Shown: positions 1 through 55,232 of the stretch, piece after piece
Numbering within the stretch: the stretch's first letter is position 1
How the letters are laid out: each line of letters opens with the position of its first letter
Assembly (NCBI GenBank): GCA_951406725.2
Contig: OX597820.1
Coordinates: 51,150,001-51,214,000 of the forward strand
Source of the DNA: Octopus vulgaris
Lineage: Eukaryota
Reading direction: 5' to 3'
Length of the DNA stretch: 64,000 nucleotides
Translations under genes and position numbers: made by a program
The notes under the pieces: generated by a model
The model's database searches: none
What the model was told of the DNA's origin: nothing
What the model saw: only the letters and a program-made list of their open reading frames with translations

Positions 1-613
1 TGATTATACATTACATGAATCCTCACGTATAGATCGATAATGTTGATAGTGTAAATAGCAACGGAGCACTATTCGATGGTATTTTCTGATGGTTGATTTC
101 AAGACTAGAAATTCCTCAACAAAAGACTACAGATCTATATATTCGATCTCATATAGATCACTTGGTTGATGGAAGCAGTGGTTCTGTTATGGAACTTTTG
201 ACATGGATAGAAGCTTATGTAATCCCTGGGAGTGTGATACTGGCACTAATGTGCTTGAATAGATTATGCATAACGTAGAACTACGTCCTTTGCGAGCCGA
301 TTGTCTGTGAAATATGGCACTTCGCACCTCCTTTGTTTCAGGTTTGCATAACATTTGCTTTCACACAAACTTCTCTGTGAAAATCGTAGAAAGCACCTCG
401 CCAACTGCACTATACTGATGTATACTTTTCTCACACTGGCTGTGTCTATTTCTCACGCAATGTATCACAGCTTTTTCTCTTCCTATTAAAACACTGTGCA
501 ATTAACTGATTTCTTAAACAATATCCCGCACACAAAACTGACCTTCACTTTCTTTACATACGCACACACACTCACACGCACGCACACAACCACACACCTA
601 TTTGTTATCTTCT

Positions 614-704
<91 letters not shown>

Positions 705-710
705 GTGTGT

Positions 711-996
711 GGAGGCGCAATGACCCAGTGGTTAGGGCAGTGGACTCGCGGTCGTAGGATCGTGGTTTTGATTCCCAGACCGGGCGTTGTGAGTGTTTAT
801 TGAGCGAAAACACCTAAAGATCCACGAGGCTCCGGCTGTACTCTTCCACCACAAATTTCTCTTACTCTTTCTTCTGTTGGCCTGCTCGCTTAGCCAGCGG
901 GGTGGCGTCATTGAAGGCTTAAACAATGCGAAGCGCATTGTGACCAGCGATGCGTAACAACATCTGGTGGCCTGGTCAGCCACGTGGTCACGTGAT
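711..996 (+). mobile_element. tRNA-derived SINE (family S1), near full length
   Basis: Head GGAGGCGCAATGACCCAGTGGTTAG (A-box-like) and GGTTTTGATTCCC (B-box-like). The 3' part (AAACAATGCGAAGCGCATTGTGACCAGCGATG...CACGTGAT) matches 25890-25966. Preceded by (TA)n(TG)n. Confidence 0.8.
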
Positions 997-2291
997 ATGT
1001 ATGTATGTATGCATATATATATGTACATGGAGGCGTATGTATACGCATATAGAGCATGTGACAATCATTTTACTTCCAATAAAATGAGTTTGATTATTTT
1101 CCAAGTGATTCTTTAGCATTTCCAATCGAGTTTCCATAAAACTGTGCGATTATAAGACTTACTTACCCTAAGGTACCATAATTGATATATTTCCCAACTA
1201 TCCTCCACCATAGCCGTATCTTCAGCAATTCGTTGTGAGTACAAACATAATATGTAACCGTGCTAAGGAACACACCATGTGTGTTGTTTTGTATTTTGTC
1301 AGTCAAATGACTGAAAAAAGTAAAAGAATAAAAGAATATATAAGCACGCTTGCACTCACACGCAGACACACATATACCCATGCATACGCATACACATACA
1401 CACATATATGGCGGAAATTTTCAGATGAATCTCTCAAATATCGATTTTTAATAATTACTATTTAGTCACTCAATATTTGGTCAGATGTCATCCCCAGACA
1501 TTGACCACTATTCATACATGCACGTTGGTGTCTATACTTTTCGGACATCACGTGCAATAATTATTTCATTATCTAATCCATGTCCTCTAACAACATGAAA
1601 TGTTATCTCCACATTTATCATGTCCATTTTTAAACATTACAAGAAATTAAAATATATTTTCCTATTCACAACTGGTCCAAATTATTTTCTAAAATTAAAC
1701 ATCTCTTCCTACTGATTGAATTTTACATTAATAAATATTAATGAAATGTGACTTGTAACTTCATTTGTAATCCACATTATCCAGTTTAGATTTCTTTAAA
1801 AGACGTACAGTTTATTCTATTTTATTTATTTTTCATTCTCTATCATATTTCTCATGATATGCCTTTAGTATTGACGATTATTTCCGTTTTCGGGTAGGAA
1901 ATTTATGAAGGAGAACATTGTAATGAAATTAGCGGGAAACAAAATCCACAAAAAATGTGTAAAATGAGGATGGCTCATAAACCACGTCACAGAAGTTGAA
2001 TTGGTTTTTACATTTATTTCACTATAATTAAGTGGTTCCTAGAGAGATTCCCTCTATAAGAGTTTGTTGAATTACATGGAACGGTTTTCGAAAATTTTGT
2101 GAGCTTTAATGATAGGGACATTAAGTGTTCCTGCAAAAGTTTAGAGCATTATGTAATGAATTACGCATGAGTTTAATTACTGTCGTATTACATACAAACG
2201 TGCATATATATATATATGCAAATACACACAAATATACACACACGTATGCAGGTACATGTATCCATCCATCTATCTATCTACCTTCTATCTA

Positions 2292-2322
<31 letters not shown>

Positions 2323-2899
2323 ATCTATCTATCTATCTATCTATCTTCTTATATTTGATTACTCGATAAAGAGGCGAAGTCAACATATTTTACTTTAGCG
2401 TAACAAAAGTAACGACGTATGGAAGTCATTATTTTTTCCTATTTCACAAAAAGAAACACTAAGTCAAACATAGACACATGTTTTCAATTTTGGATGGTAA
2501 GGCAACTTTATAAAACCTTGTAATTGCCTATTACCGATTTTATCATATCTCAAAGCGATTCAGAATTGGCACAGAAAAACAAAAACAGTATATTTTTCGA
2601 CAGCCTACTACTTCTATAATACCAAGTCCACATTTTCGTTAATACTAACTATTCATTAAGTTCATATGCACGAAGCCACACCAGTGTGTAGGAGAAATAA
2701 TGAATTACTTGTACGATTTTATCAAGCAGATACAACGATTTACCAAGCAAATACTACCTCAGCAAAACTTCGGATCAAAATACAAATTGATGTAACTACA
2801 CAATGCATAGTATTATATACTCTTTTCTCTTAACTCTTAGCAGTTAGATCCGTCAGTACTCTCAGTACAATAAGAAACAAGCCTTCTCCAAACATCTCG

Positions 2900-3040
2900 A
2901 TTGAATGCTTTCCTCTTAACCTACCGAAAACCCATCGCTCTCAAGTCATCCCGAAACGGCCTGCACCATCTCATCCTTTGCCTTCCACTCGATTTCTTTG
3001 CTCCTTTGGGCGTCCACTCTCTCACGACAGCACCATGTAT
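2900..3040 (-). mobile_element. RTE-type LINE C-terminal remnant
   Basis: Reverse strand translates VREWTPKGAKKSSGRQRMRW, matching the RTE C-terminal W-x-P-x-G-x-R-x-x-GR-x-x-x-RW pattern. Confidence 0.5.
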
Positions 3041-3579
3041 TTCCTGCAATAACTGAACAACTTAGTCAATGCAACGAACCCACCGCTTAATCATCACATT
3101 TTACAAAGTAGCACTGCTATCTCTTCTCATTCCTTTTTGTTTTCTTTCTTTTCCGGTACGAGTTGCCAGAATTGAACGTACACAACGTCAATGGAAAGCA
3201 TGCAACAAGTGGGAAATCTTCTGTGATGTTTTAAGGTTTCATAGGCGTGGTTGGTTGTTAGTCTATAAATAGATGACTATAACTACATGTTTATCTTCTG
3301 ATTGTAGGATTATTATTTGATTAATCAGGTAAAACAGGATAGGACGTTGAAGTTTGGCGAGATTTAAACTCATATCGTAAAGAAAATAATGCAACTAAGT
3401 ACCATCTAATTGATTACTTGATCCTTACATTCATAATTGGCTGGCAAATTATTTTATTGAAGATGCAGGTAGATTTGATTGAAGTGCTATATAAAAGCGT
3501 AAAACAAGGGCTTTTTATTCATAATCCAATGCTCTAGCGATATTGCAATTTAAAATCAGTATTAAAACAGTTTATAATC

Positions 3580-3760
3580 TTTGTTTCGGCACAATGGTCC
3601 GAGTGACTTTCTGACGTAATTTGTTTCGGTTATTTATCTCCAGAATTCCCATCTCGCAGCAGGCATCTTTGACTTTCATCTTATCAGAGTGAATAACAAT
3701 GTATTAGCAAGGTACCGAGTAGCCATTTACCATTAACTTTCTGGTCTTGTGCCTTTATCA
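3580..3760 (+). mobile_element. Degenerate SINE (family S3)
   Basis: CTTTGACTTTCATC...TCTGGTCTTGTGCC resembles the S3 copies at 5365-5557 and 58786-59468. Confidence 0.45.
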
Positions 3761-4288
3761 TTATGAATAATATTAATTATTGCAATGTAGCAAATGGAAT
3801 TATTCAGATATTGTTATTCGATAATTACGTATGACATAATCTTATATAGTATAAAATCGCATTAATCCGTACTGTACCATGATATACACAAGAAAATTTA
3901 TATTTCAGACTATTTACACGGTGATATTTCATATCTTTTATTAAAATAAATATTTTTACGGAACAAAGAAAAATCTGCCTCTAAAAACCATTGACCGCAT
4001 ATTATATGTGCGCAGTAAATTATTTTTCCTGGCGTTATGTAGTCTAAAATTACAATCTAAATAGCTTTTTAATGGCTTTTCTTGTGCGTTGGTATTCGTA
4101 CACGTGTTTAAAACGGCTGTGTAAACTATTTAAACATGAATTTATAAAGCCCTGAGCGTAAAGAAACAACATTTCGTTGCTTTGAACAAACGAACGCAAA
4201 CGTGCTTGAAAAGAAAAGTTAGCAAAAGAAATACATTTGATTTTTAAAGAAAATAACTATGGAATCCGATATATATATATAAATACAC

Positions 4289-4423
<135 letters not shown>

Positions 4424-5194
4424 TGAACTGGTAAGAACCCAGCCACACACGATAGATACACACATAAACAGAAAGCGCATCATGTATGCTTTTCCAAATG
4501 CGATACAATCATTTATACACAAACGCACGTACACACACATATATTTACACAAGTGTATATATATATATATATAATCACTTTTGTGTCCGCTTCCGTGTAG
4601 CGTCGGTGTGCATGAATGTAGTGGGTATATATGTGTATCTTTCTATACGTTAATCTAGTTTATGCATCTACATGTGTAAATTTCCTAGATACTGCTGATC
4701 ATTATATGGCCCTTCAGATTCTAGGTGAACATAACAACCAAATTATTGTTGAAAATTAAGATAGCGATGTTGTCAGGAACATAATTTGCCGAGTGAAAAT
4801 GCCTTCGATGTAGAATACATTTTACCTGTTCTCCCATCAATTATTTAAGTCTGTAGTTTGCTTAAAATTCACAGAATGTTATAACAAAAATTCAGGTAAA
4901 TGCTGTATTTGAACAACATAAACGTGCTGACGGCCATTCGGAAAAAAGCCTAGCCAGTTAGTCAACAAAACGGTTTAATGCTACATATAAAGCAATGGTT
5001 TGCAACATGTTGACTATTTGTTTTGTCATCATAAAAGACGAAAAAAATGTAACTTCAAAAACATAAATAATATATAAAACCAACACCAGTGTACTTTCAA
5101 ATTATGTTGTTAAGCAACAGCTGAAAATGAAAAAGAAAAAAAAATGTTCAACTACTATCCAAATGCAGTGAAGACAAAGAAAGTAAGAGAACGC

Positions 5195-5345
5195 CAGTAT
5201 TCCAACGTTTTCGTCTAATATGTAGGTTGAGAACCATCAATAAGATATACATGCAGCTAATTGCTTCCATTGTTATACCAACAACCACCTACGCCTGTGA
5301 AACCCGGAAAAAATAGCGAATATCTCTCAATTGCTGACGATTTTT
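5195..5345 (+). mobile_element. RTE-type LINE reverse transcriptase remnant
   Basis: Translates IASIVIPTTTYACETR, matching the RTE L-x-YGCETW motif, with frameshifts around it. Confidence 0.5.
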
Positions 5346-5364
5346 ATTGCTCTGTTGTTATTCG

Positions 5365-5557
5365 TTGAGAGCTTGTAGAATTGTTAGCCCATAAGGAAAA
5401 TTTTTACCAGTGACTTACTTTATTATATGAAATATTGTCGGGGACATCTTTGCCTTTTATCCTTCTAGGTACATCCAGCTGAACACGGGGTTCCATGTAA
5501 TCGACTTGCACCCTACTCCAAAATTGCTGGCCCTGAGCCAAAATTGAAGCCAATATT
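5365..5557 (+). mobile_element. Degenerate SINE (family S3)
   Basis: AGAATTGTTAGC head, CTTTGCCTTTTATCCTT core, ATGTAATCGACTT and AAATTGCTGGCCCTGAGCCAAAATTGAA tail, shared with 58786-59468. Confidence 0.6.
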
Positions 5558-6249
5558 TTTGAATCTTTAGATGCTAAATCCTTAAAGAAAAATACGGAAG
5601 TGGACGCAAATCCAAGTGGAAAGCGTTTTTGGCAGGGATTATATTACCCGGTATAACCATTACACAATACCACACTTAAACCCATATAGGTTATTTTCTA
5701 ATTCAATTTTAGTAAATCATATGTAATCTGAAACTGGTTCATGCGTCTGGTATTAAAAAAAAATTCTATCTGTTATTTGAATGTATTCTACCTAAAACTC
5801 ACACACAGCATAGTATTGCAATACTCTCGGTACATTTATGTATATTCTGGACGTTTCGTTACATATTGCTTTTTATTTCCTTTAATGATAACGAAGCAAG
5901 TAAGGTCATAATTTAGTTCCACTTCAAACACCAACATTTTGCTTATCTAATTCCCCAGAGTGTTATACTTGGGTGTATTCAAGATTTCTTTCATATATAA
6001 TATTTTATTTTCGAATTGACTCATCCAATATTTATCCTAATTAATCTAATTTCTCCACCTGGGAATCTAGAATGAAACATAGTAAATTGATTATATTAGT
6101 CATTCTCATTGTATATATTTACAATTAATTGCCATTCGGTGAAGCAATTAGTGGTATAAATACTGGATTATGTATCTGGATATGTTGTTCAATATATGTA
6201 AGACATAACCTTATTGTGATTGAACTGTTTATATATAAACTCGGGTAGC

Positions 6250-8170
6250 CATAATCAATATCGTCATTCTTTAAAACCTCTTCATATCTAATATATAATC
6301 TAAAACCTCCTTCATTAAAATTTGTGTCTTTGATCTGAGGCCGTCATCAAAACTTGTGTTGATTATTCATTTAATAAATCTATAAATTTGTTGGTAAACT
6401 CTTTAATAGCTGTTTTGTACGCTGTTTGCATACGTCATTAAAAACGAAGTATTTTCTTTAATCTGAGCTCTGTATGTTGCCTCTAAGCTCAATTGTTTTA
6501 ATGCTGAAGATGATTGAATATAATTTATTTTACTTAAATGTTACCTTGACAAAATTTTCTGAAATTAATCTCAGATAACTTCCTCGAGCGTACCTCTCGT
6601 GCACGTTGTTGATTTTCCTCTTGTTTAGCATATATAATGCACAATTTGAAGTCATTAGTGGAGAGTTTGTGGTTTCCTCCTCATATCATTTGCATCAGAT
6701 TCCTGTTTGGAATAACATTTTCGTTTAATGTGATAGTAATAGTAAAGAAACAGCTAAGAGATCTATTAAGAAAAACAGAGTGAGAGAGAGGGAAAAACCC
6801 GCACTCCGTAAATTATTCCCGGGCTAATAGAAAATGTTTTAGCTTTTCGTAATTGTTTACTTCATCTCTAGCTGCAACATCATTTGCCATTTCTGCGGGT
6901 TGTGTTCGATGTGCGTGTTTATTAATACAGCTACCTTAATCATAGTTAATGTTTCCTAAACTAGTGAAGGAAGAATACTCCCAAAGCACTTCTGTTAGTC
7001 AATGCGTGCCATATTCAGTCAGGTTTTTTCCATTACTGTTATATATCTGTTGGTCATTAACAGGTTTTACAACATATGGATCTTTGTACATTCATTATTT
7101 AAATTTCAAAGGGAGACATCTTTTGTGCCATCATGTGTCCCTGAATAATTATAGCAGTTAAGAGTCTATTCTTTTCTGATGAATATTTTTGTATCATATT
7201 ATTAGGATTTAAGATGGATTCATCTCTATGCAACATTATACTACGTTTATAAATCTTTCATTGTATGATAAAATATATTTCCCTCCGTACATTACGTTCT
7301 TAATGCACATTTCAACCAATATGTTGGACTTTTTTTAATACTAATGTATGAACTGATACTCACCTATTTTCAAGAGCAAAACCTTTATTTTTTCTAATTT
7401 CCAAAGCATGCCGATGTAATACAAATAAAATATGTTTGGTTTGCTTATGATCGTATATTGATTTCAGAACTGATTTAAGACACATTTAAGTTGGCATTAA
7501 ACTACTTGTTCCTTTTACCTAGAATACTTTGATACTATTTAGAACAGAAGCTTAGCAGTTTAAGGAGAGTCTCTATTTTAGGCGATCTTGCTTGCGTGTC
7601 TTTTTTTGAAAACTGAGGTGTTGGTGGTATTGTTATGCATATTTTTCATATGGTGTTTCGGTGATGTCATTTACGACTTTTAAAGATCTTTATACGCTTT
7701 GTTTTTTATATGTATTCACTTTCCAAACATTTCTTTCCTCTTTTCTCTTCCTAAGTGAGTTCTTTGGAAAAAATAAATAACTTATTTTTAAGTAAAAGTA
7801 TTGTGGTTGGTGCAGAGCCTATTTGTTTATTCGGTGATATTAATATTAACACTTTGTTCCCGAGAATGTATAATATAAGGTGGAAATATGGTATTCCTTT
7901 CATAACAGCATTATGGTCTGTTGAACTGTTAGGGTCGTGCTCCCATATTGAGGTCATGTGTAATGGAAAACTTTTAAGGAGGTTATATAGTTGCATTAAG
8001 TTAATACGACTTTAGAAGCTTATACGGTTCTTTATTTAGATTAACATTATTTGCGTCATGCATCAGGTTAATTAATTTCAAGGGGTGTTGAGTTTTAGAA
8101 ATGCTATTTTACATACTGTTTATACCTCTTGATCAATACATGGTTATGTTCCAATACGAATTTTGTAATG
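6250..8170 (-). mobile_element. Very decayed Penelope-like element remnant(s)
   Basis: Scattered reverse-strand peptide traces: DLNMGA (FDVTMG-like), NKLYSIIFSIKTIEL (KLxKIFNxNTVKLSY-like) and a GLTE-like stretch. Heavily interrupted by stops and frameshifts. Confidence 0.3.
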
Positions 8171-9170
8171 TTTAACCTTTAATGCAGGGAGGGTGAACAC
8201 CATTACTAATTAATTTTTGCTCAATTGCAGTGGAGTGTCTTTTCTACCTTGCTTTCTCTTCATTACTCGATTAAATTATTGGTCAGCAACCGCGCTGGGA
8301 AGCACCTGAAAGAGTTTAGCCAAACAAATTGACCCAGTAATTTATTTTAATTCTGGTACAATAACGATCTATTTTGTAAATCACGAATTAAACAGGAAAG
8401 AAAATAAACCACTACCAGAGACGAACGCAAATACAAAGCACACAGACTTGCATATATACAAGCACATACGTACATGCATATACACACTTATACATCCATA
8501 CATATATAATGTGTTTGTGTGCATGCATATATAGAACAGATAGTGAGGGCTTATCAATCGGGGCAGAATCTTTTATAAGCTCACTGATTGCACACCAGGC
8601 TAACAATATTACCTAGCTATGTAAAGAAATCCAAAATAATCTTTTGAGCAAGGTGCCAAGTTATGTATGCAAATCAATAGATAGGCTTCAGATAAACTGA
8701 TATTTACAGTGTGATATATAAGACACAAGTTAAAAATAATGGTCATTACTTATAATTCCTTTATTAGACCAAATTTTGCTTATAGCTGTTTCCAGTAGTC
8801 ATTATAGATAAGTTTGCTCAATTGGTCTATTGATCAATTGAGGTAAATTGAAAGACTTTTCGTCAGTGCGATTACTGAAATAACAAGCACAGAACTTGAA
8901 GAATGGCTACTGCATGGGAAAAGTGGAGGAAGATTGGAATGTTTAAGTGGAATAGTTGAAGGCAATTTCAATGTAGTGTTAGCAATTGAGGGAGTAGAAG
9001 TAGCAGTATTATTATTCGTAATAGCAGGAGTATTGTATTGCCAGATTTAGAAGAGGGACAATCACATAGGTCAGCGACCTTTATCATTTTGGCATTGTAT
9101 ATAGGTGAGATACTCTCCAGCCATATATGTAAGTGTGTGCGTGTGTACGTATATGTGTGCGTGCATATAT

Positions 9171-9337
<167 letters not shown>

Positions 9338-9890
9338 TATGCTCTGATGCAGTACCAGGCAGTGGTTCCCATGATTTTGACCTTAACTCACTGTAAGAAT
9401 TCTCACGTACATTGTTTTGTCTTCGTATAAAATATGGGCTACAGCAAATATACAGGTCAATACCACAGATTTGCTTGTCTGTTGTTTGACCATACCCAGT
9501 TTAGCATGTCCCATAATAGCTGACGATATGTTCATTTCTGATCACGAGCAGAAATACTGGGGAAGCATCATACCCATGTACTGAGAGGAATTCTATTCCA
9601 TTTGAATAATTCGTCTCTGGTAACATGGGTGGTTTGTTCATTCTTAAAGTAAACCTTATTCAGGGGACTTTTGATTGAGATGGGCTATTCGTCCTGACGA
9701 AAATTCTAACTGAGCCCCACATGCAATGTCATGCATTGTTTATTTTGATATGAGATAACCATGTCACGCACATATGATTGTGATCCATTTTATGGTGTAC
9801 GCTTATCGGACGGGTAGTCATAATGAGTATACCAGTCATCGTATATTATACCCTAGTGTCATGTTGGCATGCACTGCTCTCTCACTGAAT
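9338..9890. mobile_element. ~550 bp non-coding interspersed repeat bracketed by AAT/GAT repeats
   Basis: GC-richer block starting GCTCTGATGCAGTACCAGGCAGTGG and ending GCACTGCTCTCTCACT, with trinucleotide repeats directly on both sides. It resembles a repeat I recall from octopus DNA. No ORF. Confidence 0.5.
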
Positions 9891-9926
9891 GATAATAATA
9901 ATAATTATCATCATCATCATCATAAG

Positions 9927-9974
<48 letters not shown>
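9891..9974. repeat. (AAT)n-(CAT)n microsatellite at the junction of two elements
   Basis: Directly visible. Confidence 0.95.
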
Positions 9975-10812
9975 TGCCTTTGCACACCTACTAACTCTGA
10001 GGATGTACCACGGTGTCAAATGTTAACTACCAGTGAAGTAAGGTAACATCCCCTATTTTTCAAGCACCTTCCGAAGTATTCGAGCGGTTCCAAGCAGTGC
10101 TGTTTTCTGCAAATGCTCCACTCTTATTGCAGCCCCTATTTCTCCCAAGTACTTCTCAAAATTTTTACGCACAGTTTCCAGGGCTCCGACAATTTATTTC
10201 TATTGCTACCACCTTTTTTATCGACCGCAACTTCTTAACCACCCACGCTAGCCTGTCATAGCTATCGACGTTTCTTTCTTCTTTATCGCATAACATGTTG
10301 TCTGCTGGGCATGCTATGTCTATGATCCAGCATCGTTTGTTTTCTTCCTCAATTAACACTATGACTGGCTTCCTACTCTCTACCACATGGATGCGCAGAA
10401 TCATAAAATCGCATATGATCTTTGCATTATCCTTGTCGATGATGCCTTCGGTTTTACGTTCGTACAAATTTGTGCTCTGTCAAGACTATAATTGTTTCAA
10501 AAATATCCAATGGACAACCCTTGCTATATTGTCATGAGCTCTCTTATATTCTTTCTGGGCTAGGGGCGTTCATTGACTGGCAATATGCCATACGGTTTCA
10601 CCATTTTGTCCGCAGATTCTGCATTTATTACTTTCTCAATATGTTGTCTATTCTGCATTTCATTTAGTTCGTTCTTATTGCTAGCTCTTTGGCAGCACAT
10701 ATTAGAGCCTCCCTTTCCGGTCTTAAATCACTTTTAGTCATCCATAGCCATCTTTTTTCTCTGTCTGTCTTATCTTCAACATCCCTATGAAATTGTCCAT
10801 GCATTCTTTTCG
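9975..10812 (-). mobile_element. 5'-truncated R4/Dong-like non-LTR retrotransposon with a restriction-like endonuclease (RLE), pseudogenised
   Basis: Reverse strand reads MHGQFHRDVEDKTDREKRWLW...ALICAAKELAIRTN*, then the zinc knuckle KCRICGQNGETVWHIASQ* (last Cys lost) and YKRAHDNIARVVHW. The RLE follows (RKPVIVLIEEENKRCWIIDIACPAD...KEE; ORF 10165-10467), ending VEHLQKTALLGTARILRKVLEK*. A short 3'UTR runs into (GAT)n. Confidence 0.9.
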
Positions 10813-12754: not shown

Positions 12755-12935
12755 ATCGAAAAAGCACTATCTAGGTTCGAAATTTCCCCAAGACACCTGA
12801 TGAAGCCTGGAGGGTATATCAGCCGAAACATTGCGTTAACAACAAACAAGATGAGAACAAATATCCGTCAAATGTTAATAAGGTAAATGTTGTAAATAAC
12901 GTACATAATTTCTCATCTCTTAGATATACAACAGT
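12755..12935 (+). mobile_element. PLE-type short repeat (HHR family A) with a degenerate minimal hammerhead
   Basis: GACAC-CTGATGA-A-GCCTG-GAGGGTATAT-CAGCC-GAAAC-ATT-GCGTT at 12792-12837 has the HHR core CUGAUGA...GAAA. Homologues at 12365-12505 and 55051-55232. Confidence 0.7.
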
Positions 12936-13169
12936 TTTAGATATTCATTGAATATTTCTTTCTTTCATCAGTATACAAAGGCTAAGAGAAACTTAAAATA
13001 ACTTCAAAGCAACTTTGAAGCAAATGCGAAGAAGTATAGGATATATCTTTTATATGATCAATCATAATCATTAGCAATCTAGGATATTGATACTAGTTTT
13101 CTTATATAAGTTATTAATACATTCAATCATAATGAATTATTAATTATGTTTTTCTTTCTTTTGTTTCAG

Positions 13170-13791
13170 AAAGAAAATGCCGGCAACTATAGATGGGCAG
13201 ATGACAATTGAAAAGACGCCGAGTTATTTTATAACAAAAGAGGTTCCAAAAAGGATCTTCAACATGTCCAAAGAGATGAAAATTCTTGTAATCGTTCGCG
13301 ATCCAGTCACAAGAGCCATTTCTGATTACACGCAACTTGCTTCAAAACGTATGAATCAGATGAAACGCTTCGAAGAACTGGCATTCCTTAATACCTCAAC
13401 TAGAATTGTCGACACAAGTCGAAATATAATTCGGATCGGGGTCTACGCAAAATTCTTGGAGCGATGGCTTCATTACTTTCCTCTATCTCAGATGCATTTT
13501 GTAAGTGGTGAACAATTGATATCTGATCCTGCGCAAGAACTTAGCTTAGTGCAAGATTTTCTTGGATTAAAAAGGATCATTTCTGAGAAACATTTTTACT
13601 TTAACGAGACAAAAGGTTTCCCTTGTGTGAAAAAGGCTGAGGGAAGCGGTCATCCACATTGTTTGGGTAAGACGAAAGGAAGGCCTCATCCAACTGTAGA
13701 TCCGACAATATTAAAGCGACTGAGAGATTTTTATAGGCCGTTTAATACAAAGTTCTACCAAATGGTTAATAGGAATTTTCGTTGGCCATGA
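13170..13791 (+). CDS. HS3ST: Terminal coding exon of heparan sulfate glucosamine 3-O-sulfotransferase (HS3ST2/3/4/6 / Hs3st-B type); partial gene
   Basis: Polypyrimidine acceptor TTTTTCTTTCTTTTGTTTCAG ends at 13169. The phase-2 entry would complete the conserved WYR codon, followed by KKMP. Motifs: TIEKTPSYF, the 3'-phosphate-binding [26 protein letters not shown] and [13 protein letters not shown] (disulfide Cys pair), ending FRWP-TGA. The 5'-PSB motif (GVKKGGT) is not in the window. Confidence 0.95.
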
Positions 13792-29270: not shown

Positions 29271-32004
29271 TGTGTTGATGCAAACAGGAAAAATACTACT
29301 TAAAATGTGCGTATATGTATATTTTTATTAATATTTAGCAGAACAGAGTGACTCAAGATCCGAATGTTTCGTGCTTTGGTACGTACCAAATTGATTACAT
29401 GTCGAACCTATGTAAACTCACGGATCTTCGACCTTTAACTAGCTTGGTATGTGCCAACACACGAAAGTCTCGGACCTTGAGTCACTATGTTACTTCTGCT
29501 AAATATGAATATATATATATATATATATACAGAAAGAGAGAGAGAGAGAGAGAGAGAGAAGGAAAGAGATCGATTGATAGATAGATAGACAGGCAGACAG
29601 ATACACACTCACACTTCCTGCATTCCTCAAATTATTTTTTGTATAATTGCATCCATCTTCTATTTATGAAACATGCTCTGTATATCACCATGCATTTTCT
29701 TTCCACATTTAGTGTTCGTATGATTTTTTTTCTGTCTCCATTACTCTACGTATTACTTGTTCTCTATCCTAATTTTCTCTCTTGTTCTCTTTACTTTCCT
29801 TCTTTCTTTTCCCCCCTCTCCCATACACATCGTATCTTATACTTATCTTTTTTTCTGTTTTTACCTTCCGATTATATGAACATTCCTACTTTTCTGTACT
29901 TTATTATTCATTCATCTAAACAAGATTTCCATGAAATATAAAGCAACAGCGAATAATATCTTAAACGAAAAAATAATAAATATTTAATAAAGCAATTCAA
30001 AAATGTCCACAAGTAGATTTATATGATATTTTACGATGCTCCTCTCAATAACTTATCATGGCGGAAATCTTTAACTGAACGGAAATTTTCCTCTGATTCT
30101 CATCAAATCCACAGACTACTTTTGTATAGTTAATATTGTTAATGCTACTCACTTTCGATTTTGCATTCGTTTCTTTTTTTCGCATGAGGTATTCCGCTTG
30201 AAATAAGTTCACTTGTGGAAAAGACTGAACATTTGCTAAACATCTACTGAGCAATTCAACAATAGAAAGAAAAATTAAAGAAACAAATTAACTACTATAT
30301 ATTCAGGAAAAAAAAATAAAATGTCTAACAAAACAAGCTGTCATTTTCTTATTAAGGTTACTAATTTTGTGCTGTAGTCATCGTAGAATAAAAACTTGAT
30401 AGCTTTCTACTTTATCGATTATTAAAATATAGAGCATTTAAAACATCGATGAATTTCATTTTATAAACTGCTGTAGCTTATTTAAGCGGAAGTACTTATC
30501 CGAGTATTTTACAGCGAATAGATGAAGGAATGATCAGAAAAGCATTCCATACCTCTATCGCACATGGGTATGATGCAATTCTATTATAGATTTTTCCTTT
30601 TGTTAATGGTATGAATTGCTTTACATAGAATCAAAGCTAAAATTTGACGAAAATTAACATACACAAACGATTGGAGTAAATCCAAATGATGTTATCTATT
30701 TTTTGTAAACAGGCGTCTTATAAACCAGAAGCGAGTTTAGCACTGCTTGCAAAGAAGAAAAGTAATTACTCAAGGACACTTTACTGTCACTCGTTCTCAT
30801 ATTTCCCCTTACCCGTTTCAGTTGACATTGTCTCTTAATAGAATCACAAGCGTACTGGATTGATGTAGAACTCCAAACAAAATGACTTATAATATTTAAT
30901 TAAGTCGTTTTGGTGTCAGTAAAACAAGTAGCAATAAAATGTATTATAACCTGCTATAAACAAGTTAATATATGACGTCTATTGTCTATGTTAGAAATTA
31001 ATGAGTAATGAGTGATGCAAATACGGTTTATTCCTACAGATACTTAGCTTAATCCAAGATCATACCGCTGAAATTTTCTCTCAACTCAAAAAGATATAGC
31101 AAATAAGGCATGAATATATAATATTTTTTCAGATTATCGCGTCAACAGCTGCGTACAATTACAAATCATTATACATAAAATATTGTTTTTTAACTGAAAA
31201 GGAAAATACCACTATGTGTCATATATTCTAGCACGTTGATGTTCTACCGTTCTTTTACGGTAGTTACATTCAGTTCGAACATAGTTTCTGTAAATCAATT
31301 ACATTTCAATACATTTGTATGTGTACAATATGATTCTTTTATCAGTTCTCTCTTTATGCACATTTCACTGAATTATATCAAATTTTAATTTTCTGTAATG
31401 TAGATCGATATTAAATATCTTCTTCTCTAGAGGAATTGCTTCTTTCATACTATTTGCAAACCTAAATACTTATTTAGAAGCATAATCGAAAGCGAATCTC
31501 TGTTACTTGTCTTTTGTGATTTTCAGGTGAAGACTGGTGCCACGAATCACAAGTTGCTTTTCTTCGGTACATATTATGGGGTATGCACGGACAGACAAGA
31601 AACTATTTTGATGTATATATGAATATACTTTTTCTGTATTAGTTAGGTTAATTTGAAGAGTACATTAACTTTTCCATGAATGGGAATAAAGTAAAATACT
31701 AAACTCACAACAGTATCAGAATGGTAATTAAAGCCTAATATTTAAAATATATGAATAAGGATCGATAACATAAGTTAATGTAAAAGTACTAGCAGACATC
31801 CACAAAATCAATGTCAAGTACAATATATTAATAATGCTTGTATCTAATAGTATATCGGTATTTTCACTAGCTTACAATACCACATAATTGTTACATACTG
31901 AACAAATCTCAAGGAAGTAAACTCTAGATATTCATAACTTCACTTATATATGAACTGTTATGTAGTAACATAAAAACAAGCGGGTCTAAACAAGTACGCG
32001 GATG

Positions 32005-32052
<48 letters not shown>

Positions 32053-32060
<8 letters not shown>

Positions 32061-33232
32061 AAAAATATGGTAAAGTAACAAAATTCACTTTACCACACAC
32101 TGAACTTTTCAGAAATAGCAGCCAAAAATTTGGCTATTTCCTCAACTGCAAATAAAAGTCTCCAGACAATGCATACTCAGAAAATAACTCACATAGGTAT
32201 AAGGGAAAAACAATGAAAGATCACATCCATATAAGATACCCGAGGACAGCCTGTTTCTGGATTCGTGGGTTAAACGCCACTTTTCCTTCATCAGCTCAGA
32301 GATTTCTTCTGATTTAGATTTGAAAATACTAAGAATCAAACATACCCGTCCGATATCTGTAACATTCTCTCCAAGAATTTGAACTGCAGCTTTTGCCTCT
32401 GTAAGAATGTACTACTCTATGACTCACGTGGGTGGACAGGGAGAATAATAGATCTCATTTGTATTTTTGGATTCGCTGGTACTGGGTGTCTGACATGGTT
32501 TGTCCGATGTTACAGATATCGGACGGGTATGTTTGATTCTTAGTATTTTCAAATCTAAATCAGAAGAAATCTCTGAGCTGGTGAAGGAAAAGTGGCGTTT
32601 AACCCACGAATCCAGAAACAGGCTGTCCTCGGGTATCTTATATGGATGTGATCTTTCATTGTTTTTCCCTTATACCTATGTGAGTTATTTTCTGAGTATG
32701 CATTGTCTGGAGACTTTTATTTGCAGTTGAGGAAATAGCCACATTTTTGGCTGCTATTTCTGAAAAGTTCGGTGTGTGGTAAAGTGATTTTTTTTTACTT
32801 TACCATATTTTTATAAATTAATACTTCAAATATACCGTAAACGGTCTTTTTACATACCGAATACTGCTTGGTCGAATTGATTAACAATTAATTAATTCTA
32901 CCCTTTTTTACTGACAATATAATGCTTTCTCTCCAAGAATTTGAACTGCAGCTTTTGCCTCTGTAGGAATGTACTACTCTATGACTCACGTGGGTGGACA
33001 GGGAGAATAATAGATCTCATTTGTATTTTTGGATTCGCTGGTACTGGGTGTCTGACATGGTTTGTCCGATGTTACAGATATCGGACGGGTATGTTTGATT
33101 CTTAGTATTTTCAAATCTAAATCAGAAGAAATCTCTGAGCTGATGAAGGAAAAGTGGCTGTCCTCGGGTATCTTATATGGATGTGATCTTTCATTGTTTT
33201 TCCCTTATACCTATGTGAGTTATTTTCTGAGT

Positions 33233-33235
<3 letters not shown>
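32053..33235. mobile_element. Young non-autonomous PLE/retrozyme-like element (HHR family B): inverted arm plus tandem direct repeats
   Basis: 32053-32365 is the near-perfect reverse complement of 32507-32820. 32927-33235 is a direct copy of 32365-32700 with a short deletion. Every copy has all or part of an HHR motif. Bounded by (TA)n on both sides. Confidence 0.85.
32239..32300 (-). ncRNA. Type I hammerhead ribozyme candidate (family B, intact core)
   Basis: Minus-strand RNA: UCUGAG-CUGAUGA-A-GGA-AAA-GUGG-CGUUUAAC-CCAC-GAA-UCC-A-GAAAC-AGGCU-GUC^CUCGGG. Stems I, II and III can all form, with a GUC triplet. Confidence 0.65.
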
Positions 33236-33270
<35 letters not shown>

Positions 33271-33285
33271 ATGTATGAATATATA

Positions 33286-33341
<56 letters not shown>

Positions 33342-44796: not shown

Positions 44797-45043
44797 GAAA
44801 TAATGGAGTTGAACGACGAATTAACAAAATTCCTTTATTTTCGACATATGTTTCGAAGGCTGCATATTCCTAATTTCGAAGGAATAAGGGGTGCATTATG
44901 CCGCCTTCTCATCAGGAAAAAACAAGGAACTTATGTCAGCATCAAGATGCACAAAAACTTTTAGATGACTGCCCACACGGATTGCTACCCAGGTATCGGT
45001 TAACCGAATTATCCATAATAAGATAATTCATTCAACTACTCAA

Positions 45044-47176: not shown

Positions 47177-47229
47177 CTCACGAGATTTAAAAATTTTATC
47201 CATTATATCTGACCCGGCATTTGAAATCT

Positions 47230-48466
47230 ACTGCTTAAGCAATTTCTCGACATTCTACTGAAATACTTTTGAAATAAATCAAAAGCTTTGCTGGAGATGA
47301 TCTAGATATTCAAAACAAGCACCGAAAACAATTAATGAAGATATCGGCTTCCTTCGAGTCTGTGAACCTAAACACTAATATCCCAACTAAGGAACAGAGA
47401 CAAACAAATTCTGTCTGGAAAACTATCCAGAAAAATTCCCAGAGCGCATGAACCAGGAAGCCTTGAAATGTGTCTTTCACAAAAACTACTTCTTATTTTA
47501 TAGCACTTTCTATAGACAAAAATGCGAAAAAAACTTTGGTGACAAAAGCAGCCCCAGCTTATGTGTACCTACTAATGGTATAGTGAGAATCAGTTATGTC
47601 AAGTATCATAACAAAACATAGATATTCAGTTTAGCAATATATGAGATAGAACTGGATATGCTATCTGGATCACTGCTTTATTATTTGGAATAAGAAAATT
47701 GATAAACGTTTTGAATTTATATCACTGTTCAATAATATAAATCCAAATATTTTGTTTACAATAGCATATAGCAAAGAGCCACCCCCATTCCCTAATATTT
47801 TGATAAAACAAAGTTGTACAACTCAATTGAAATCAATATCTATAATAAACTCTCAGACGCAAAGGAATAACTTCAGGTTAACTCATTCCATCCGAAACAC
47901 AATGCAATGTATCCGTACAAAGGATACAAATACACATGACCTTCACCTTCATGAAATAAAAAACACATTAGTCGTGAGATATAAATGAAGGGATCAAACG
48001 TGCAACGGAAATAGATATCGAAACACTAAGTGAAAGAAAACAAAATTTCACACTCCATATAAACATACAATGATGCATATAAAAATATTATTCAAATTTT
48101 ACCTATTCTCACTATGGATCCTAAAATCAACCACATTCTACGAACACACAAATACATCAAAAGGAAAAACAACCTAACACTAAAATATGTGAAATTATAC
48201 CCAACAAGGAATCTAAAAAGTAAAGGATGTGGTCGCCCAAATTGTGGAACGTAGAGCAACTTACACGAAGGTTTAGAATTCTAATTTTAAACAGGGACAA
48301 AGATTCATAATTACGGCTGCTTTCACCTGTGCCATCGAAAATCCAATTTATGCGATGTTTTGTTCAAGATGAGGATACACATTGGATGTTCTTAGACGGA
48401 GACGAAGACTGCATTGGGAACAAATCCGTTTTCTAAGATATCGACAAATTCTGTTAAGCGAACACA
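47230..48466 (+). mobile_element. Decayed Penelope-like retroelement (RT plus GIY-YIG)
   Basis: Ordered motif traces: TNIP, NYF.F, TKAAPAY, WICYLDHCFIIW (YxDD region), FTIAYSKEPPPFPNILI (LPFLD-like), IY.K..D..F.HP.H, GRPNCGT, FTCA..N.IY..FC and [14 protein letters not shown]. Truncated by (GA)n. Confidence 0.75.
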
Positions 48467-48468
48467 GG

Positions 48469-48471
<3 letters not shown>

Positions 48472-55050: not shown

Positions 55051-55232
55051 GTTCTATACTTAAGAGATGAGGAATTATATACCTTATTTACAATTAACGT
55101 ATATTTGTCCTCACCTTCTTTGTTGTTAAGGCAACTTTTCGGGTGATATACCCTCCAGCCTTCATCAGGTGTCTTGGGGAAATTTCAAACCTGAGTCCTC
55201 ATTCCTTAGGTATTTTTTTGCTGTTGTTGTTG
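55051..55232 (-). mobile_element. PLE-type short repeat (HHR family A) copy
   Basis: Reverse complement of 12755-12935. Minus strand reads GACAC-CTGATGA-A-GGCTG-GAGGGTATAT-CACCC-GAAAA-GTT. Confidence 0.75.

Follow-up and report, generated by a model that had tools for sequence, protein, structure and literature searches.

What kind of element leaves three hammerhead copies and no credible protein between two TA-rich runs of octopus DNA? The window, the whole 64-kb stretch of DNA analysed here, contains such an insertion (Table 1). It is probably a copy of a multi-copy, protein-free 562-nt Octopus repeat with a variant type I hammerhead motif, a retrozyme-type pLTR derivative that was copied by a Penelope-like element (PLE) into a TA microsatellite.

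Layout and ribozyme copies of the insertion

The insertion is built from a small number of parts, in the order inverted B, A, B, C, A' and a truncated B', with the last base at 33235. Self-alignment recovers the ~313-bp near-perfect inverted arms that an earlier note on this DNA had described. Positions 32053-32365 and 32507-32820 align over 314 columns with 98.1% identity (E 2e-154), on either side of a 141-nt spacer; they differ at six positions, three of them within one T-tract, and the T-tract difference lies at 32788-32794. The direct repeat of ~562 bp was also seen correctly, and its period is exactly 562 (32365-32703 versus 32927-33238). The second copy departs from the first by two substitutions (2/309) and one 27-nt deletion at ~33156, with GGC on either side. 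At the inner inversion junction one base is common to both sides (1-nt microhomology). Since TA-rich microsatellite, (TA)n on the left, adjoins both ends, a target-site duplication is unreadable. Diverged relatives of the unit are found nowhere else within the 64-kb window. The word 'young' holds for this insertion only in a relative sense.

Table 1. Features of the window discussed in the text
Feature	Position	Strand	Details
Last coding exon, heparan sulfate 3-O-sulfotransferase	13165-13791	+	Identical to Octopus sinensis protein
Left flank, (TA)n microsatellite target	32007-32052		No target-site duplication discernible
Inverted 5'-truncated copy (part B)	32053-32365	-	Outer end = unit position 32820; inner end at rod apex
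Type I hammerhead motif, family-consensus core CUGAUGA	32239-32300	-	C3 at 32294; predicted cut after 32245
Full 562-nt unit, 36% GC	32365-32926	+	A 32365-32506, B 32507-32820, C 32821-32926
Predicted rod	32382-32728	+	Part A 32382-32511 pairs with 32515-32728; apex hairpin 32500-32526
Hammerhead copy 2, CUGGUGA at 32578-32584	32572-32633	+	A6G at 32581; predicted cut after C32627
Core of hammerhead copy 2		+	Bulged A32585; G32586-C32613 = 10.1-11.1; extra A32614; GAAA 32615-32618
Hairpin segment common to other, more abundant repeats	32744-32820	+	
Partial second unit (A' + B')	32927-33235	+	B' stops 120 nt before usual terminus
Hammerhead copy 3, broken	33134-33168	+	27-nt deletion with GGC microhomology
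Right flank, (TA)n/(TG)n microsatellite	33236-33340		
Decayed Penelope-like element, RT + CxxC linker + GIY-YIG region	~47180-48470	+	Many stops, frameshifts, (GA)n interruption

An assembly artefact, with a repeat that was collapsed or wrongly joined where it lies between two TA runs, is very unlikely. The T-tract difference could be homopolymer error, and the locus-specific junctions (the inversion junction and the 27-nt deletion) are absent from the contigs of the four public runs described below. However, those runs are possibly from other animals and speak neither for nor against the assembly, point changes and a microhomology deletion between copies are not expected of fold-back chimeras, and the ends and layout fit PLE biology.

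The insertion has little coding capacity, in agreement with the earlier statement that it holds no credible protein. The longest stop-free frame of the circularised unit is 81 aa, and Pfam matched none of 83 stop-free frames from 22-44 kb of the window (83 of the 96 listed for that span; SINE-like and microsatellite frames were left out). No remnant of an ORF was found in the unit by tblastn with 33 PLE-like proteins (best E 0.035). The RT plus GIY-YIG ORF that an autonomous PLE carries between its pLTRs is missing from the insertion. Nor is a host exon recognised by Pfam near it in the same 83 frames; nothing points to a function of the insertion for its host, and as repeat biology it is ordinary. 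An exon-like stretch at 31528-31568 (+), 480 bases to the left, has acceptor and donor motifs and no Pfam match. The sulfotransferase exon of Table 1 is over 13177-13788 100% identical to the Octopus sinensis protein, 96% to that of Argonauta and 88% to that of Octopus bimaculoides, which places the host in Octopus, near O. sinensis; tblastn found no upstream exons of this gene within the window.

The hammerhead can be drawn with a 6-bp stem I, CUGAUGA, a bulged A, a stem II that starts with G-C, an extra A, and GAAA. Its stem III has 3 bp and a GGC loop, with GUC at the cut. Almost palindromic, this stem III segment is of the dimer type and is predicted to pair with itself at -10 kcal/mol. 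Among the three copies, the consensus core occurs only on the minus strand. Even this copy, which had been called intact and does have CUGAUGA, comes with qualifiers: an additional A stands between C11.1 and G12, Rfam gave no hammerhead match at gathering score or at E<=10 (only microsatellite-driven miRNA noise), and folded in isolation it does not outscore its shuffles (z 0.14 and -0.05). The active fold lies 3.7 kcal/mol above the predicted minimum for the monomer and has a predicted cost of 6.5 kcal/mol within the whole unit.

The two tandem-direction copies are both damaged, as had been noted from the letters. The plus-strand CUGGUGA carries A6G, and changes at A6 are described as giving low activity (Perreault 2011, PMC3088659). 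Because A stands at the equivalent of 32581 in all four public runs, the G appears private to this locus. In the third copy the 27-nt deletion, with GGC on both sides, removed GAAAC together with the 3' portion of stem II. The extra A is another matter. Related hammerheads in two loose ends of public contigs, which belong to related families, retain it, and it is therefore not private decay; in one related hammerhead an A-U pair of stem III is replaced by G-C. Two consecutive units with complete hammerheads, which define an 'active' retrozyme copy in Li 2026, are not present here (A6G; 27-nt deletion), and the only whole hammerhead is on the opposite strand, inside the 313-bp hairpin. As both tandem-direction ribozymes are broken, the locus is probably dead, and it probably cannot release monomers.

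The 562-nt unit in public sequencing runs

Part of the 562-nt unit is carried by 20 of the 24 runs listed (nine studies, four organism labels, best share 0.53). None of the runs listed as carrying it is recorded as RNA; X5 and X18 are guessed to be RNA. Four runs (X1, X5, X7 and X18) were compared as assembled contigs on one period, 32440-33001. In all four, depth is seen in 30 of 30 bins and the joint that goes back exactly 562 is present. Diverged contigs with more than 31 letters on either side bridge the A/B join (X1 record 1, 19 other letters), the B/C join (X18 record 14) and the C/A join (X1 record 5, 8 other letters), and mid-A is also bridged by diverged contigs in other samples. These bridges are spread over different runs, and the whole unit is spanned by no single contig. 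A head-to-tail, multi-copy unit of a few hundred bases, as expected of a retrozyme, is what the period and the bridged joins describe. Whole-unit cover together with bridged joins identifies 562 nt as the unit of the family rather than a locally deleted Penelope; a single-copy unit, the case that the earlier note had set against its own proposal, is not what the four runs hold.

Summed unit depths are 500-10,000 in X1 and 7,600-115,000 in X7, far above the weakest contigs of these runs, at depth ~8, depth not being the same as copy number. Some contig pieces hardly differ from the window (at 2 of 222, 0 of 95 and 0 of 86 letters), which would fit a recent subfamily. The unit patterns had no matches in the metagenome and viral contigs scanned, and no autonomous element with this pLTR came to light there. 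An intron, with a donor-like site near 32683 and an acceptor-like site near 32936, was considered and is not supported: the contigs of the four runs, a kind of data that can hardly prove its absence, have no skip joint, and an unspliced contig crosses the donor.

One segment of the unit behaves differently from the others. Depth over 32744-32820 is several times higher, and contigs have loose ends at 32747 and 32795, which indicates that this segment is common to other repeats. Other insertions end at 32820-32823, like the outer end of the inverted copy at this locus, and X7 depth drops there from 114,608 to 30,395. The segment is likely the site of RT recognition and initiation. The right end of the insertion (the equivalent of 32700) is 120 nt shorter than the usual terminus and is not a terminus of other copies among the loose ends listed; either synthesis began at a second start site or a deletion later cut into the microsatellite, as possible explanations. 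A 1514-nt X7 contig also ends in 32744-32820 and might belong to an autonomous partner.

The public contigs bear directly on a simpler origin, an ordinary autonomous PLE that lost its ORF at one locus and has a 562-nt period by local accident. The canonical PLE geometry and the sharing of 32744-32820 with other families would both suit it. It is nonetheless highly improbable, as the C/A join and mid-A are spanned by diverged contigs from other samples, all bins are covered, tblastn gives no ORF remnant, and part A goes back to an old copy of B in inverted orientation and not to the end of an ORF. To judge from the contigs, it appears largely refuted.

A predicted rod and A>G changes

Part A and 32515-32728 are complementary in inverted orientation, though imperfectly (score 291, against a maximum of 253 in 500 shuffles). 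As RNA, the two would form a long rod with the ribozyme placed in its bulges; gaps of the A/B alignment face most of the ribozyme. For the hammerhead-sense unit as a circle, the predicted MFE is -169 kcal/mol with 65% of positions paired, and z is -8.35 for the sense versus -3.46 for the antisense strand (60 dinucleotide shuffles each). The highly self-paired monomer typical of retrozymes is thus seen in the predicted fold. The oppositions between A and B include 24 G.U and 4 A.C (p 0.0002 with strand-neutral scoring), or 19 and 5 at other gap costs, and the G.U excess was matched by 7 of 300 composition-matched shuffles. The strand-neutral null is the right one if part A descends from a perfect inverted copy.

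Family variants tend to avoid the pairs of the rod. They fall at unpaired positions in 14 of 22 cases, against 35% expected (p 0.005), these 22 being drawn from 40 of 80 rows listed with 17 editing-like rows and 32581 set aside. Five of the eight variants at paired sites retain the pair and three break it. One reading of part A is that the unit captured an old pLTR in head-to-head inverted orientation. Palindromes are typical at inverted junctions of PLEs (Arkhipova 2013, PMC3846280), and the inner end of the new inversion coincides with the rod apex.

Two further ideas about the rod were discarded. As an off-switch, 32465-74 would pair with stem II and GAA (32608-17); to reach the active fold takes 6.5 kcal/mol when part A is present and 8.0 kcal/mol when it is absent. 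Pairing in most metazoan retrozyme circles is described as not specially blocking the ribozyme (Cervera and de la Pena 2020, PMC7229834). The whole circle is also not a palindrome, as part C against the 3' part of B scores no better than shuffles (564/1000).

Differences between contigs and unit are unevenly distributed among substitution types in one run. On the hammerhead-sense strand, X18 shows A>G at 41 places and T>C at 3; this run is only guessed to be RNA, and all 41 places are supplied by a few contigs, not paired with DNA from that animal. The DNA run X7, with the same organism label, has 4 versus 3 (Fisher p 0.028), and X1 has 5 versus 8. The other RNA-guess run, X5, has no such bias (5 versus 6). 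Among the 17 A>G sites listed (of 41), 14 have U or A on the 5' side, and a 5' G is depleted (1/17 listed versus 34/130, p 0.05). The same sites are enriched in the rod span (14/17 listed, p 0.02) and are not enriched at paired positions (12/17 listed, p 0.34); two A>G sites fall in stem III of the ribozyme. ADAR prefers U or A and disfavours G 5' of the edited site, hyper-editing is very high in octopus, and a lizard Penelope is heavily edited (Porath 2017). The X18 bias is ADAR-like, and it is a good hint of sense-strand transcription with editing, or else of genomic copies made from edited RNA. An ADAR origin of the fixed G.U pairs was tried and not adopted; depletion of 5' G at these (4/32 versus 17/59, p 0.06) gives a hint only.

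A proposed route of insertion and comparison with known elements

The layout of this locus is that of a PLE insertion. A partial tandem, an adjacent inverted 5'-truncated copy and a bias to microsatellites are canonical for these elements (Craig 2021, PMC8557442), and the locus has the partial tandem with the inverted 5'-truncated copy beside it and a microsatellite target. The geometry proposed in the earlier note, an inverted partial pLTR followed by tandem direct pLTRs with hammerheads, thus matches Craig 2021 and Arkhipova 2013. Its suggestion of an ORF-less, ~560-nt retrozyme-like PLE parasite is supported by the whole-unit cover, the bridged joins, the lack of an ORF remnant and this geometry. 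The left end matches the ends of other copies (32820-32823), and the right end is 120 nt shorter, as against an optional PLE tail of 30-40 nt.

A possible course of events can be outlined. Family copies would be transcribed on the hammerhead-sense strand as RNA longer than one unit, as the A>G-biased contigs suggest. This RNA is predicted to fold, by an observed complementarity, into the long rod of the old head-to-head inverted pLTR. As a candidate step, the dimer-type ribozyme would cut multimers to monomers, which would be circularised by host ligase. A partner RT-endonuclease, probably of Neptune type, would nick (TA)n, and both DNA ends would prime internally on the RNA, near 32820 (the family terminus) and near 32700, sites that differ from the ribozyme cut site. 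The two outward-pointing ends lie 193 and 73 nt downstream of that cut. At the rod apex two cDNAs, of 313 nt and ~870 nt, would then have been fused head-to-head, with a microhomology of 1 nt. As ~870 nt corresponds to 1.5 units, the template would have been a circle or an uncut multimer. Head-to-head joining resembles the twin priming of L1. A6G and the 27-nt deletion would afterwards have broken both tandem ribozymes, leaving the locus a probable dead end, and any read-through RNA from it would form a 313-bp duplex accessible to ADAR.

Such a route has biochemical parallels. At AT-rich DNA, an anole PLE protein cleaves the two strands and extends them, initiating inside the RNA, downstream of the hammerhead, and hammerhead cleavage is dispensable for insertion in vitro (Frangieh 2024, PMC11167929). 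Cleavage of both strands with internal initiation would explain two outward-pointing ends downstream of the cut. The decayed element of Table 1 is of Neptune type, as assigned by its CxxC linker and not from a tree, so that partners of this type exist in the octopus genome; this particular element is too old to have been the mobilising partner. Other hammerhead-bearing repeats also occur in the window. A second type, at 12790-12835 (+), just upstream of the sulfotransferase exon, and at ~55130-55185 (-), has CUGAUGA, a bulged A, stem II and GAAA; the two copies are ~85% alike, stand beside trinucleotide repeats and are likely pLTR stubs of a different PLE family. A hammerhead-like motif of a third type is found at 44860-44920 (-).

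The tandem and inverted copies might also have arisen after insertion. A non-autonomous PLE passenger with a vestigial hammerhead could have inserted as a single unit, with the copies made afterwards by DNA repair, through fold-back or a switch of template at the apex of the hairpin. The inner junction at the hairpin apex suits this explanation, as do the differences between copies (6/314 and 2/309 places and a deletion) and the non-consensus core with no Rfam match. It is unlikely all the same, because the left end is the terminus of other insertions, as expected of fresh priming, the tandem join is present in diverged copies elsewhere, A6 is retained in all four runs, and stem III covaries in a relative.

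The preferred reading, a PLE-copied retrozyme-type unit, can be compared with three groups of known elements. Non-LTR animal retrozymes (PMC7229834; Li 2026, 10.64898/2026.07.22.740005) have an ORF-less tandem unit with a type I hammerhead, GC below 50%, a highly self-paired predicted circle, and a presumed PLE helper and pLTR origin, as seen in or proposed for the octopus unit. At 562 nt the latter is longer than the 170-400 nt of invertebrate retrozymes (PMC7229834) and within the range of 51-972 in Li 2026. It differs from them in its PLE-type core with an extra A before GAAA and in its inverted truncated copy. In the parts of Cervera 2020 and Li 2026 covered, no cephalopod case of a non-LTR retrozyme was found. 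Most of the predicted retrozyme dimers in Li 2026 stayed uncut; one of nine cleaved (bioRxiv 10.64898/2026.07.22.740005).

EN+ PLEs of the Neptune and Penelope-Poseidon groups (PMC8557442, PMC3846280, PMC11167929) share with the octopus insertion a partial tandem with a head-to-head inverted 5'-truncated copy, a palindrome at the inverted junction, a microsatellite target, and ends downstream of the hammerhead. In contrast to these, the octopus insertion has no RT/GIY-YIG ORF, a period of 562 nt versus ~3 kb, and ends that differ by 120 nt where EN+ PLEs have a 30-40 nt tail. Non-autonomous Chlamys PLEs, e.g., MRC1, also form pLTRs and head-to-tail multicopy insertions, and share their 3' end with autonomous families (PMC8557442). 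These come from a green alga, and their clade is mostly without hammerheads, unlike the octopus unit.

The ribozyme also resembles those of PLEs. A bulge between 9 and 10.1, a G10.1-C11.1 pair, a long helix II and a small palindromic helix III of the dimer type are described for metazoan and PLE hammerheads (Cervera and de la Pena 2014, PMC4209133) and found here. The extra A between 11.1 and 12 has no mention in the text of PMC4209133 or PMC3088659. No description of a 562-nt octopus or cephalopod family was found in the literature searched; repeat databases and paper supplements may list the family or the core variant.

The element is best described, from its sequence, as a retrozyme-like non-autonomous PLE derivative: it would work in the manner of a non-LTR retrozyme and insert in that of a PLE. 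The suffix '-like' is kept because the locus does not have two whole ribozymes in tandem and because cleavage and circles are candidate steps. PLE geometry and the link between retrozymes and PLEs (PMC7229834; 10.64898/2026.07.22.740005) have already been published. What is new here is the predicted rod from an old inverted copy, the variants that avoid its pairs, the A>G bias and the extra core A.

Mobilisation of animal retrozymes by PLEs has been proposed from co-occurrence and pLTR similarity (PMC7229834; 10.64898/2026.07.22.740005). The case is made more directly by a retrozyme-type unit that has an inverted copy specific to PLEs, a terminus in common with other insertions and a microsatellite as its target, and 32744-32820 can be named as a short candidate cis signal. 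The rod suggests an origin for the pairing in such circles, and the A>G-biased contigs tie a retrozyme-like unit to cephalopod RNA editing. A fuller reading can be offered as a doubtful one: a cephalopod retrozyme with the full PLE signature, whose viroid-like rod is a fossil inverted-pLTR junction under RNA selection and scarred by ADAR, repeated editing and reverse transcription having turned A-U pairs into fixed G.U pairs, and whose ribozyme works despite a new core insertion. If true, this would show in concrete terms how the geometry of PLE insertion can give rise to self-paired RNA circles, and that ADAR editing of a mobile RNA can be inherited.
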